64,000 bases of DNA, from the IMG/VR virus record IMGVR_UViG_3300025666_000003, positions 36,108 to 100,107 of that record. The stretch is one strand, 5' to 3'. Shown here piece by piece: positions 39,967-53,452 of this stretch. The notes below the pieces were generated by a model. The model made no database searches. It was not told the DNA's origin and saw only the letters and a list, made by a program, of their open reading frames with translations. The stretch is from a virus. Within the stretch, counting starts at the first letter, position 1, and each line of letters opens with the position of its first letter. Both the position numbers and the translations under genes were made by a program.

Positions 39967-40550
39967 ATGTCAAACTCATTATAGTTTTTCAGACCGGGGT
40001 CTTTTTTATTTTTCATTCTATGCTTGGTTGTCTCTTTATTAAAGATTTCCCGCATCTTTCTCATAGGATCAACTTGAATATACATTGTCCAATTCTCTGG
40101 ATAACTTTTAGACAAACTTCTTTTAAATGTTCTACATGCATTAAAAGCCCAACACTCTCTATTAATAAACTTATATTTACTTGCGTAACTTGTATAAAAA
40201 ATCTTAGCTAGTTTACCATCTGTTTCCCAATTTTTATTATTAACTGTTATACCATATTTCTGAGACTTGCCAAAGTTTATATTATTCTTCTTACTAGCTT
40301 GACAAGTACCTACAAAGACATATCCTAAGCCTTCTGGTAATTCTACACCGTCTCTAACATCAATTACATTTTCCCAAAATAGAATATTAAAAGCTTTTCC
40401 TATTTTTCTTAAATCTTTATCACTAACATCTTTATATCTTAAATGTTTTTTTCTAAAATCATTAAAGAGCTTAGGATTCATAACTTGATAAACATCTGGT
40501 CTGAATCTGGGTCCCTTTATGTTTGGTTTTTTAAATTCTTTGGTATTCAT
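39963..40550 (-). CDS. HU/IHF-like basic DNA-binding protein
   Basis: Helices followed by GVELPEGLGYVFV (HU-like beta arm entry). Very basic. crAss-like phages carry IHF-like genes at this position. Confidence 0.55.
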   Translation of the reverse strand: MNTKEFKKPNIKGPRFRPDVYQVMNPKLFNDFRKKHLRYKDVSDKDLRKIGKAFNILFWENVIDVRDGVELPEGLGYVFVGTCQASKKNNINFGKSQKYGITVNNKNWETDGKLAKIFYTSYASKYKFINRECWAFNACRTFKRSLSKSYPENWTMYIQVDPMRKMREIFNKETTKHRMKNKKDPGLKNYNEFDI

Positions 40551-40560
40551 ACTATATATT

Positions 40561-40575
40561 TAATATACTAAAATT
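40561..40575 (-). promoter_or_regulatory. Candidate phage promoter motif TTTAGTATATTA
   Basis: 10 nt upstream of the ATG at 40550, downstream of a terminator. Confidence 0.6.
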
Positions 40576-40608
40576 AACTGAATTTAGCAAGTTAACACAA
40601 ATATACAG

Positions 40609-40640
40609 AAAAACAAAACCCCTGAATAATTCCAAGGGTT
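40609..40640 (-). terminator. Rho-independent terminator
   Basis: Minus strand AACCCUUGGA-AUUA-UUCAGGGGUU (10-bp stem with 2 G-U pairs) followed by UUGUUUUU. Confidence 0.8.
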
Positions 40641-40685
40641 ATGCTTTTTGTTAGCCGCAGAAACCAACAAACTACGACATATTTT
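40609..40685 (-). ncRNA. Candidate small antisense RNA (hairpin plus terminator)
   Basis: GUCGUAG-UUUGUUGGUUU-CUGCGGC stem-loop at 40654-40678. The loop is complementary to the leaders at 50353-50363 and 53341-53351. Confidence 0.45.
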
Positions 40686-40691
40686 ATATTA

Positions 40692-41513
40692 CTAAAATAT
40701 TTTAGTAAGAGATAATATTTTTGATGTTACAAAATTTCCTGGATCTGCAACAACAAATCTAGCTCTTACAGCAAAAAGAGTACCTAAAAAGTTTGTTGTA
40801 TCAACTACTGAAGTTGTATTTAAGCCTGTTCCAATATTATCAAGGACACCACCGTATTGTACACTACCTGTTGCACCAATACTTCTTACAACAATTTCTG
40901 CTTCAAGTACAAAGTCGTTACCTCCTGTTGATGAGTGAGTTGCAAGAGTAATACCACCAAATTGAACCTGAATTTCAGTGTCCGTTGCAAAACCTACAGT
41001 ACGTTCTACGTGAACTTTCAGTCTAAAAGTATCACCAACACTTAATGAATTTGCTGGGATAGTCATTGATCCTACACCTGAACCTACAAAATTTGTAAAA
41101 CTGGTTGTGTTTGATACAACCGCATCTGCAATAGCTGTAAATAATCCTTGGGGTAGTATATTATCAATAGCAGTACAAAAATAAGCTACAATTAATACTA
41201 GTGCATCTTCAACTAAAGTATCTGCAGGTACAATTACATCAAGATTACATAAAATATCATTATCTACAGTTACTTCATCACATAAAAAAGATGTTATAGA
41301 TGCAAGTGCATCTGAAACACTAGAGTTTGTACTTACTACTTCAACAAGACCACAAGTGATTGGCAATCCTGTATATACAATACATTCTGCATTAAATGAT
41401 TCTGAACATGGTTGTACTTCAGGACAATCAGATGGTACTGGACATGGTGGAGGAGTAGTTAAATAACTATCTTGACATCCACATTTACTTAAATTACATT
41501 TATTACAACTCAT
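40692..41513 (-). CDS. Cys-rich fibre/spike-like structural protein (273 aa)
   Basis: Cys-rich N-terminus with CIVYTGLPITC and a beta-rich C-terminal domain. In the tail cluster. Confidence 0.5.
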   Translation of the reverse strand: MSCNKCNLSKCGCQDSYLTTPPPCPVPSDCPEVQPCSESFNAECIVYTGLPITCGLVEVVSTNSSVSDALASITSFLCDEVTVDNDILCNLDVIVPADTLVEDALVLIVAYFCTAIDNILPQGLFTAIADAVVSNTTSFTNFVGSGVGSMTIPANSLSVGDTFRLKVHVERTVGFATDTEIQVQFGGITLATHSSTGGNDFVLEAEIVVRSIGATGSVQYGGVLDNIGTGLNTTSVVDTTNFLGTLFAVRARFVVADPGNFVTSKILSLTKIF

Positions 41514-46208: not shown

Positions 46209-46337
46209 TTATTTTTTTAACTTAAGAGATTTTTCATATGCTTGCAAGCAAGTAGTACAGCAGGATTTTGAATTTGATGCTGTTCTTTTTTGGCAGCCAC
46301 ATGAAAGTTTTCTTTTACAATTTATACAATTTGCCAT
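46209..46337 (-). CDS. Small basic Cys-rich protein (42 aa), probably metal-binding
   Basis: Hand-translated and below the track cut-off: MANCINCKRKLSCGCQKRTASNSKSCCTTCLQAYEKSLKLKK. It fills the gap between two genes and has an A-rich leader. Confidence 0.75.
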   Translation of the reverse strand: MANCINCKRKLSCGCQKRTASNSKSCCTTCLQAYEKSLKLKK

Positions 46338-46358
46338 CTTTTTGGTTTTTTAAATGGT

Positions 46359-49341: not shown

Positions 49342-50349
49342 TTAAGCGTTCCACAATTTCTCCACCTTAGTATTTAGATTTTGTAAAATATCCTCATGTA
49401 AAGGATTCTTCAAATATTCTATTACTTCAGATACATTTTTACCCATTAGAGATTGTGTTTCTGTATGATAAATATGTCCATCAGCTTTAGTAGCGATATA
49501 CTTATAATATACAGAATCTTTTACAATTGATCTAATTTTTAATGTCTCCATATCAAGTTTTGTTGCATCAAGGAATCCATTAGCTGCTCTTTCTTTATTT
49601 CCTTCTACACCTTCACCTGTAATGTGTCTATCCATATTATCATAGATAACATCATTTGGAGTGTTTCTTTTGTACTGTATACTTGTACCATCAACAACTT
49701 TTGCAATATACATTAATTTAGTACTATTCTTGTCAAAGAGTTTTTGCAATTCAGCAAGTGCTCTATTACGTAATTTCTTGTATTCTGTTTTAGCAGTTAC
49801 TGTCTGCTCTTCTTTATCTAAATAAAATTTAGGTGGAATTGCTTGAGTTCTTGCATCATCATAACTTTTTGATACAAATGCAAATCCTCCTGCATCAATT
49901 GCATGAAGTTTTATTCTGTCATAAGGATCTTTTGGATCTAAGAATACTGGTTCATTTCCACAACTAAGAACAATCTTGTTCCAAAATTCTTCATTGTCGG
50001 GTTTAAGTAATTTAACTTTATTCCAAAAATCTTTATCTTCAACATCAAGAACATTAGCAGCAAGCTCTTTTTCTAATTCTGCTACAGATTCTCTAATACT
50101 TTTGATTACTCCTTCTCTTTTTTCATCTGGAAGAAGTTTAACTTCAGGTGCAAATTCATTTAAACCTGTTAAATAACGCATAATACCATTATTTTCTAAA
50201 CATGCTAGTTGTTCATAATGTTTAACGCCATCATATAATGATAGTCCATAATTTTCAAGTCCCATATTTGATACTGAATTATCAAAGAATGGTCTGATAG
50301 CAATGGCTTTGCTTTTTGTTGCGAATCCTTCTACGTGTGTAAAACTCAT
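49342..50349 (-). CDS. Conserved head-module protein downstream of the MCP (335 aa)
   Basis: ORF flanked by terminators, at a position conserved in crAss-like head modules. Function not evident. Confidence 0.55.
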   Translation of the reverse strand: MSFTHVEGFATKSKAIAIRPFFDNSVSNMGLENYGLSLYDGVKHYEQLACLENNGIMRYLTGLNEFAPEVKLLPDEKREGVIKSIRESVAELEKELAANVLDVEDKDFWNKVKLLKPDNEEFWNKIVLSCGNEPVFLDPKDPYDRIKLHAIDAGGFAFVSKSYDDARTQAIPPKFYLDKEEQTVTAKTEYKKLRNRALAELQKLFDKNSTKLMYIAKVVDGTSIQYKRNTPNDVIYDNMDRHITGEGVEGNKERAANGFLDATKLDMETLKIRSIVKDSVYYKYIATKADGHIYHTETQSLMGKNVSEVIEYLKNPLHEDILQNLNTKVEKLWNA

Positions 50350-50371
50350 TTGTTTGTTGGTTTTAATTATT

Positions 50372-52067: not shown

Positions 52068-53339
52068 TTATCTTTTGAAAAAACCTCCTGGATCTCTCTG
52101 AAGTGTTTTTTTTGTTTTTCTTCTTGTTGGTTCTTCTTGTGGTGAGGAAGAAACATTTTTTCTTGCTTCTTCAGTTTTAAGTTGTCTAACAACTTTTTCT
52201 GTAGCTGCATTACCACCTTGTTCTTTAATTTTATTTTTGTATCCTTGAGGATCTTGTAATAACCAAAGTGCTTCAGCAATTAGATCATGTCTTGGTTCTA
52301 CAAATTGATACTTTTCTAAAAGATGACCAAGTAAATTAGTTGGTTTCCCAGATATAGAAGGGTAATTTGGTTGAACTAATCCTGAATATAACATACCTTG
52401 AGTTTTCTTATCAAGTTTAATATCTCCAAGTTGACCTACAGATAAAGTATCGTATACGTTATCCATATATTGTTTAGCAGCAGTTTCTTGTTGATGTTTT
52501 TTAGATTCTTGTTGAGCAAGTTTATTTGCTATAATAGACTCTTGCATCTTATCAAGCTTTGGTTTAAACTGTGAAGCTTTTGCATCTAACTTTCCAATAT
52601 CATCCCATTCAGATATCTGCTCTTCAATTTCCTCTGCTGTACCAAACTGAGTAGCATGTAGATATTGTCTTGCAATTTCTGGATGATGTGTTTCAATATC
52701 TAAACTTAAATCTACAATTTCACTTACTTGTGATAGTGTTTTAAATAATCCTTTTAGATCTTGCCCTCCATCTGCTACATACTTAGCAGCAATTTGAAGT
52801 TCATCAGGAAGTGAATTAAAAAACTCAGTTGGCATTGATGCGGCAACTTTATTTTCTCTTTCTTGAAAATTAGCTTCTAGTAATTCTCTAAAATCTTTTA
52901 CTGAATAGTCTTCTAACTCTTTCCCATCATCAAATGGAATAAGAGTCCCCGCTTCAATCATTTTAGTAGTAAGATCATATAAACCATCTTTATCAAGTTT
53001 TGGCCTACCTACATTACCACCATCTTCTTCCTCATTAATAAGTTTATCTAACTCATCCATCTCAACTTTAACTTCTTCAGCCTCTTCTTCTGTTTGAGGA
53101 GTTTCATCTGTTGTTTCACCTGTTAAGCTAGGTTTCTTATCATCAAGGAAATTTACATTTACTTTTTCCTTTGAGAATATATTTGGTTTTTTCTCTACAG
53201 GTAGAGGTTCTGAACCATCTTCCGGTAGCATAATACTATCTGCACCAGGTTGTCCAAACATTGCGTCTATATCAATATTTGCTTCTTGTACTGTTGTATT
53301 ATCAATAAGGTCTATCACTTCTTTTGTTTCTTGAGCCAT
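52068..53339 (-). CDS. Putative scaffolding/head assembly protein (423 aa)
   Basis: Acidic disordered N-terminus, helical core and basic C-terminus. Lies between portal and MCP. Confidence 0.6.
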   Translation of the reverse strand: MAQETKEVIDLIDNTTVQEANIDIDAMFGQPGADSIMLPEDGSEPLPVEKKPNIFSKEKVNVNFLDDKKPSLTGETTDETPQTEEEAEEVKVEMDELDKLINEEEDGGNVGRPKLDKDGLYDLTTKMIEAGTLIPFDDGKELEDYSVKDFRELLEANFQERENKVAASMPTEFFNSLPDELQIAAKYVADGGQDLKGLFKTLSQVSEIVDLSLDIETHHPEIARQYLHATQFGTAEEIEEQISEWDDIGKLDAKASQFKPKLDKMQESIIANKLAQQESKKHQQETAAKQYMDNVYDTLSVGQLGDIKLDKKTQGMLYSGLVQPNYPSISGKPTNLLGHLLEKYQFVEPRHDLIAEALWLLQDPQGYKNKIKEQGGNAATEKVVRQLKTEEARKNVSSSPQEEPTRRKTKKTLQRDPGGFFKR

Positions 53340-53452
53340 TTTTGTTGGTTTTAATTGCTTAATATTAATATATGGAAATTTATAGAGATAAACTTCTAAA
53401 ATTTAAAATAACTGCATCTAAAGATGATGATTTTTTGCATTATATAGCTAAG

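Follow-up and report, generated by a model that had tools for sequence, protein, structure and literature searches.

A conserved hairpin following the last fibre gene of a crAss-like phage displays a loop complementary to head-gene start-codon leaders: a candidate phage riboregulator

The DNA considered here, called the window, is the final 64 kb (64,000 nucleotides) of a 100,107-bp virus record from an uncultured crAss-like phage. The minus strand holds all of the large genes of the window, arranged as is usual for crAss-like phages: terminase, portal, a 423-aa gene, the MCP (assigned by a match to the PHROG major head protein), and a 335-aa gene, followed by tail and fibre genes and then by genes for giant virion proteins. 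The nearest cultured relatives that we found are the FpV4-type Flavobacterium psychrophilum phages (tblastn, ~32% identity, one structural protein), and blastn of a 1.7-kb region and of the hairpin element described below against cultured phages returned nothing meaningful. The gene located immediately upstream of the hairpin (40692–41513, minus strand; stop codon 40694–40692) appears in the open reading frame list as a 273-aa Cys-rich, fibre-like gene. Its N-terminal part is common to the variable fibre genes of related phages, and a pattern search of viral contigs with the 273-aa protein retrieved no relatives. Indeed, the gene preceding the hairpin is highly variable, both in the window and in its equivalents in the related loci L001–L080, with only the N-terminal 80–130 aa shared; many of these variable genes terminate in ...V(T)VIG-stop.

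Thirteen nucleotides past that stop codon lies the seed hairpin (40678–40654, minus strand). Specifically, a 5′ arm, GUCGUAG (40678–40672), and a 3′ arm, CUGCGGC (40660–40654), form a 7-bp stem with two G·U pairs that encloses the 11-nt loop UUUGUUGGUUU (40671–40661). RNAfold returns this hairpin as the minimum free energy structure, in agreement with the original prediction as to sequence, stem, G·U pairs, and position, and the 106-nt region containing it has a z-score of −5.3 relative to shuffled sequences. The loop has a predicted unpaired probability of 0.96 in an 87-nt terminated RNA. Downstream, an A-rich linker, UAACAAAAAGCAU (40641–40653, minus strand), is single stranded in the predicted folds and leads to an intrinsic terminator (40607–40640, minus strand), which consists of a 10-bp stem-loop (40640–40617) followed by UUGUUUUUCU. 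The terminator begins, as had been proposed, 13 nt past the hairpin. A terminator scan found this one, against 0.1 expected, and it has the expected G+C-rich stem-loop and U-tract (TTGTTTTTCT) on the transcribed strand. No open reading frame of at least 30 aa in the window list covers the element. ARAGORN found no tRNA there; the loop core presumably resembles a common tRNA D-loop sequence.

The linker is itself predicted to pair, either with the terminator U-tract or with the loop. The latter arrangement is an alternative hairpin (40641–40671, minus strand) in which the loop and 3′ arm join the UAACAAA linker (UUUGUUGGUU/GGCUAACAAA), and in which the seed would be hidden. In isolation, the two hairpins are energetically equal (−7.0 kcal/mol for the seed hairpin versus −7.1 kcal/mol for the alternative). 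We considered whether such a cis pseudoknot or alternative hairpin, formed by the loop with the UAACAA linker, could be the function of the element, and we rejected the notion: the linker is unconserved across clades, whereas the match between loop and leaders is conserved. Cis pairing of loop and linker may nonetheless modulate exposure of the seed in the main clade.

Relatives were collected using as an anchor the conserved 223-aa protein encoded two genes downstream. A first set of 80 related loci, with proteins 46–66% identical to those of the window, was taken from IMG/VR, and distant clades, down to 43% identity of the neighboring protein, were reached by a profile search seeded on the FpV4 protein and by two further searches. 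An automatic fold of all GTTGGT sites was set aside as too noisy. The same module, a hairpin followed by a linker of ~10–15 nt and then a terminator, is present in 80 of 80 first-set relatives and in the distant clades to 43% protein identity, giving 99 distinct contexts in all. The module of locus L004 is found 900 nt farther upstream, owing to insertion of a 260-aa gene past the terminator. In two lineages, represented by L105 (18394–19176, 260 aa) and L234 (17532 onward, 437 aa), an extra gene separates the terminator from the promoter that serves the 195-aa gene; in both, the hairpin–terminator module stays beside the fibre gene and not beside the downstream promoter. The hairpin marks a conserved boundary beside a highly variable tail-fibre cassette, and the conserved hairpin–terminator may double as the fixed edge at which that cassette is swapped.

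Conservation of the hairpin takes a particular form: the loop is constant and the stem is free to change. The loop core, GUUGGUUU, is invariant among ~100 distinct elements, with the overall form (U)UGUUGGUU(U), or GGUUGGUUU in sister clades. By contrast, more than 20 stem variants occur across the 99 contexts, some with no shared sequence, including GUCGCAG/CUGUGGC, GUUACAG/CUGUGAC, GUCAUG/CAUGAC, CACAU/GUGUG, UUAGUUG/CAACUAG, GUAGAG/CUCUGC, and GUCAGG/CCUGAC; all are paired and rich in G·U. In an alignment of 58 relatives, 96.2% of stem cells are paired, and the covariation score is 0.316 versus 0.224 for shuffled alignments, with 0 of 500 shuffles scoring as high and slid controls reaching at most 0.116. 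Three stem positions have G·U pairs in 21–34 of the 58 sequences, so the fold forms only in the sense-strand RNA, which bears out the proposal that the G·U pairs of the window belong to the minus-strand RNA alone. The terminator stems likewise covary (helices 2 and 3), while the linker sequence varies outside the main clade. In the 20 kb upstream of and including the hairpin in 20 relatives, the antisense word occurs essentially once per genome, and that occurrence is the hairpin.

The original prediction envisaged a separate sRNA gene with its own promoter, an arrangement that the comparison does not support. In 87 of the 99 distinct contexts, a long open reading frame ends 0–28 nt (median 6) before the hairpin, a distance that leaves no room for a promoter. 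The promoter-like TTTTAGTAATATAAA of the window overlaps the stop codon of the upstream reading frame, has no −35 partner, and has no counterpart in relatives, and an own promoter for the hairpin RNA was set aside on these grounds. A minimal reading frame, ATG-TCG-TAG, does exist at 40680–40672 as had been described, but an ATG at the 5′ edge of the hairpin is present in only 34 of 99 contexts, and a functional two-codon reading frame was accordingly set aside. A leader-peptide attenuator of the His_leader type was also considered and rejected: the match scores 28.4 bits against a gathering threshold of 49 and arises from the terminator, the mini-reading frame is present in those same 34 contexts, and neither of the two alternative hairpins disrupts the terminator stem. 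Because the hairpin abuts the stop codon, and because promoter and mini-reading frame are unconserved, the element is a 3′UTR element of the last fibre gene and not a separate sRNA gene.

Beyond the terminator (40562–40604, minus strand) come a TAtaTTTG box (40604–40597) and a sigma-70-like promoter, TTGCTA-17-TATATT (40590–40562). The promoter carries the recurring motif TTTTAGTATATT, which also precedes the 532-aa and 722-aa genes. The TAnnTTTG box and TTGCTA-17-TATATT promoter, which serve the next gene, fit the “middle” promoter type of the crAss-like Cellulophaga phage phi14:2, in which the capsid module is expressed late and the downstream virion-protein genes are middle genes (phi14:2 preprint, Drobysheva et al.). 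The match to this late/middle layout suggests that the hairpin marks the 3′ end of the late transcript. The phi14:2 work describes promoters and unexplained non-coding RNAs, and not this hairpin element (phi14:2 preprint).

What sets the loop apart is where its complement lies. The window contains three exact copies of the 11-mer AAACCAACAAA: the plus-strand copy at 40661–40671, which is the hairpin loop, and minus-strand copies at 50353–50363 and 53341–53351. Dinucleotide shuffles give 0.14 expected copies, 0 of 100 shuffles reach three, and the whole 100-kb genome contains no copies beyond those of the window. When one mismatch is allowed, the 8 matches do not differ significantly from the 5.0 expected. 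The first target site (53341–53351, minus strand) occupies −2 to −12 relative to the AUG, leaving a gap of 1 nt, of the 423-aa scaffold-like gene that comes just after the portal gene (52068–53339). The second, AAACCAACAAAC (50352–50363, minus strand), occupies −4 to −15 relative to the AUG of the 335-aa post-MCP gene (49342–50349), directly 3′ of the MCP terminator; here, the gap from the 11-mer to the AUG is 3 nt, and the match extends to 12 nt with the closing G of the stem, as had been predicted. A degenerate site, AAAAACCAAAAAG (46338–46348, minus strand), precedes a 42-aa zinc-ribbon mini-gene (46209–46337). The original prediction recorded this last site as a partial match; it is partial because the leader of the zinc-ribbon gene is degenerate in the window, and the orthologous mini-gene bears the full motif in most relatives. 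The target proteins match no PHROGs or Pfam family.

Both full sites are predicted to be accessible and to pair strongly. Unpaired probabilities of the target sites are 0.66–0.79. The first site (unpaired probability 0.79) has a predicted duplex energy of −12.8 kcal/mol, and the second reaches −16.4 kcal/mol when the closing G is included; the degenerate site manages only −7.3 kcal/mol. When the loop was matched to all 80 leaders of the genome, the two leaders named in the original prediction ranked first and second, at −12.4 and −12.1 versus a median of −3.9 kcal/mol. Against the pairing interpretation, good sites number only two in this phage, the third being degenerate. A/C-rich, G-poor leaders are the norm in this genome. 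The two target leaders also share a longer word, the 16-mer AATTAAAACCAACAAA (50353–50368 and 53341–53356, minus strand), which extends 5 nt beyond the pairing reach of the loop. The extra AAUUA could reflect leader function or a recent copying event.

The same relationship recurs in other genomes. We fetched 20 kb upstream of the hairpin for 20 relatives. In genomes with fetched head genes, AAACCAAC, the complement of the loop core, lies 1–15 nt ahead of the AUG in the same orthologous genes, namely the ~412–433-aa gene after the portal gene, the ~336–341-aa gene after the MCP, and a 44–71-aa reading frame after the 180-aa gene. Genome after genome, AACCAACAA stands 1–4 nt from the AUG, often in 2–3 tandem copies, and leaders of the post-MCP orthologs carry 1–3 tandem copies of the motif. 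Orthologs of the zinc-ribbon mini-gene have the full motif in most relatives. Across 21 genomes, 57 of 403 leaders reach a loop-pairing energy of −9 kcal/mol or better, versus 14 of 403 for the reversed loop, and almost all of the 57 belong to the three orthologous genes. Counting against the pairing interpretation, A/C-rich words abound in these phages’ sense strand in general, and the reversed-motif control is also strand biased. The central idea of the original prediction, a hairpin loop antisense to the start-codon leaders of head genes, holds in this comparison, and hairpin and loop are kept along with the leader motif in the relatives examined.

The third member of the group deserves description of its own. 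The miniprotein (46209–46337, minus strand; orthologs at L084:12902 and L089:14237) is conserved, basic, 42–71 aa long, and zinc-ribbon-like, with the pattern CxNC-x7-CGC-x~13-C-x2-C (CxxC...CGC...CxxC), and it is encoded between the 181-aa and 839-aa virion genes. It matches no Pfam or PHROG family.

Since the 8-nt cores of leader (AAACCAAC) and loop (GUUGGUUU) are invariant, co-variation between them can be read only at the flanks. In the main clade, where the loop reads U-GUUGGUUU, the target leaders that contain the core read AAACCAAC-A in 61 of 61 cases and AAACCAAC-C in none of the 61. Where the loop of a clade instead has G-GUUGGUUU, AAACCAAC-C is found in 7 of 24 target leaders, from at least four separate lineages. 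At the other flank, sister genomes show one inserted base in both partners: loops ending in UUUAU accompany AUAAACC leaders, and loops ending in UUUAAU accompany UUAAACC leaders. Joint change of loop and leaders, which the original prediction had suggested as a test, is in this way partial. Although these flanks change together in sister clades, most clade-B leaders retain AAACCAACAAA despite the changed loop, which counts against pairing and limits it there to 8–10 bp. The Flavobacterium phage FpV4 (32% identity) has neither the hairpin nor the motif. In sister clades (L186–L192 and L225–L231), target leaders additionally carry (U/A)GUCAG 4–10 nt upstream of AAACCAAC, and the linker of these clades, CUGAC(UAGG), provides a second, collinear complementarity of 5–7 nt to it. 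A simpler possibility is that GUCAG marks where transcription starts following a TAnnTTTG or TATATT box.

Taken together, conservation, partial co-variation, and joint absence from FpV4 make pairing between loop and leader the best reading. Specifically, we propose that a terminator-capped RNA module in the 3′UTR that follows the last tail-fibre gene, where the late virion-gene transcript ends, pairs through its loop with the leaders of head genes and represses their translation, a proposal to which we assign a probability of about 0.6. The RNA would be transcribed as the end of that late message and possibly trimmed to a stable fragment of ~70–85 nt. Its 7-bp stem would display the 11-nt loop, the seed of which, GUUGGUUU (UUUGUUGGUUU in this phage), would pair with the AAACCAAC(AAA) that directly precedes the AUG in both the scaffold-like gene and the post-MCP gene and, in most relatives, in the zinc-ribbon mini-gene as well. 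The messages are of the Bacteroidota type, lacking a Shine–Dalgarno sequence and reliant on an unstructured, A-rich leader. A duplex covering approximately −1 to −15 should block 30S binding, and less assembly protein would be translated as the RNA accumulates late in infection. Given messages with no Shine–Dalgarno sequence and sites at approximately −1 to −15, the likeliest consequence is that initiation is repressed. As judged from sequence comparison, then, the element probably gives rise to a phage-made RNA that tunes translation of two or three virion-assembly genes; that this RNA is made, is stable, and pairs in trans to repressive effect is what we infer. One fact that counts against the repression proposal is that regulator and targets lie within the same late transcription unit.

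That shared transcription unit agrees with the same pairing having a positive or structural effect, such as protecting the short leaders from nucleases, opening the leader for the ribosome, or tying internal start sites to the late transcript’s 3′ end. All of the pairing evidence applies equally to this version. Co-expression of regulator and targets from a late module, as in the phi14:2 program, fits a helper at least as well as a repressor, and the genes targeted are ones required at high copy number. The sites, however, are predicted to be mostly unpaired already (0.66–0.79), leaving no obvious need for opening, and a duplex at −1 to −15 occupies the region in which FopS pairing blocks initiation (PMC11697453). 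We regard a positive effect as unlikely, and we give equally low odds to the notion that leaders do not pair with the loop at all. Under this second scenario, the hairpin is a 3′-end element (a protein site, or a module for RNA stability or termination efficiency), and AAACCAAC independently enhances translation of highly expressed genes, its complementarity to the loop being incidental. The constant placement of the hairpin directly between stop codon and terminator agrees with this scenario, and an invariant loop on a free stem would also suit a loop recognized by a protein; the A/C-rich, G-poor character of leaders genome-wide and the many clade-B leaders that did not follow the loop change point the same way. 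What such an element fails to explain is why two independently conserved 8-nt cores should be exact complements, why leaders change from A to C only where the loop has a facing G (7 of 24 versus 0 of 61), and why FpV4 is without both features.

Two further explanations dispense with RNA–RNA pairing altogether. The motif AAACCAAC/GTTGGTTT could be bound, whichever way round it lies, by one phage or host DNA-binding protein, both at three start regions and where the late operon ends. Joint conservation and joint change would then follow from a shared protein as well, and tandem leader copies resemble operator arrays. Yet the inverted copy is always located inside a covarying, G·U-rich stem, and because G·U pairs are A·C mismatches on the other strand, selection acts on the RNA fold. 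Furthermore, the leader sites lie 1–4 nt from the AUG, often just past a terminator, leaving no space in which a controlled promoter could fit. We consider a DNA-level motif quite improbable. Chance complementarity between a low-complexity, U/G-rich loop and A/C-rich leaders is the least credible explanation, with odds that we deem negligible: the unremarkable number of one-mismatch matches (8 versus 5.0 expected) is what chance would give, but the exact 11-mer occurs three times against 0.14 expected, and loop and orthologous leaders are conserved wherever both were examined, which contradicts a coincidence.

We speculate that the loop–leader repression proposed above extends across environmental crAss-like phages as a family-wide system. 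In this extended form, to which we give somewhat less than even odds, the late transcript’s 3′ end, protected by the terminator, would serve as an “anti-leader” RNA with one loop seed of 8–11 nt and a regulon comprising the scaffold-like, post-MCP, and zinc-ribbon genes. Such a system would be the first conserved trans-acting RNA regulon to be described in Crassvirales. The hairpin starts so soon after the stop codon (13 nt in the window, a median of 6 nt in relatives) that its 5′ arm would be melted by ribosomes terminating there. Termination on the fibre gene might, in this manner, switch the seed between exposed and self-paired states.

Few viruses of Bacteroidota are as abundant as the crAss-like phages, and, to our knowledge, almost nothing is known about post-transcriptional gene control in them. 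Our literature search found nothing on such an RNA in crAss-like phages, and Rfam has no family at gathering score on the window. If the proposal of loop–leader pairing is correct, a single, very small conserved RNA governs how much is made from key capsid-assembly genes throughout a large group of phages. It would represent a novel RNA family, unmatched in Rfam, and a natural case of antisense control of start sites that lack a Shine–Dalgarno sequence. The 8-nt seed and its tag would also offer a simple, testable handle for engineering or tracking these phages.

Loop-seeded antisense RNAs have precedents among phages. The c4 RNA of P1/P7 and the CI RNA of P4 are phage antisense RNAs cut from longer transcripts, and they control immunity and antirepressor genes of temperate elements. 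The element described here is, like them, phage encoded and, judging by its sequence, not from a gene of its own, with a loop complementary to the phage’s own transcripts, including ribosome-binding regions. In contrast to theirs, its candidate targets are head-assembly genes, in a crAss-like phage that is presumably lytic, and the RNA is encoded downstream, rather than upstream, of those targets. It has no sequence or Rfam similarity to c4/CI; the Rfam family C4 (P1/P7 c4) is absent from the matches to 40500–40800 up to E = 10.

Base-pairing sRNAs derived from 3′UTRs are familiar in enterobacteria, where they include RNAs of the CpxQ, SroC, and DapZ type. The phage element shares with this class a location in an mRNA 3′UTR, use of the intrinsic terminator of that mRNA, and a short, conserved seed complementary to the initiation regions of several mRNAs, with processing and expression putative here. 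It departs from the class in being encoded by a phage, in having the phage’s own virion genes as candidate targets, and in presenting its seed in a hairpin loop instead of a single-stranded stretch. A further difference lies in the hosts, which belong to a phylum in which the named sRNA partner is RbpB and not Hfq (PMC11697453).

Within that phylum, the Bacteroides thetaiotaomicron sRNAs FopS and GibS act as translational repressors that pair beside the start codon (PMC11697453, PMC7366714). Both have their own promoters, a single-stranded 5′ seed, host glycan-utilization targets, and an interaction with RbpB (PMC11697453, PMC7366714). [quoted passage not shown] The defining traits of the FopS/GibS family (own promoter, single-stranded 5′ seed, and sequence similarity) are not found in the phage element, whose seed lies in a hairpin loop and which has neither a promoter of its own nor any sequence similarity to FopS or GibS. 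The element therefore appears, from what its sequence reveals, to resemble both 3′UTR-derived sRNAs and the loop-seeded c4 and CI RNAs while belonging to none of these families.
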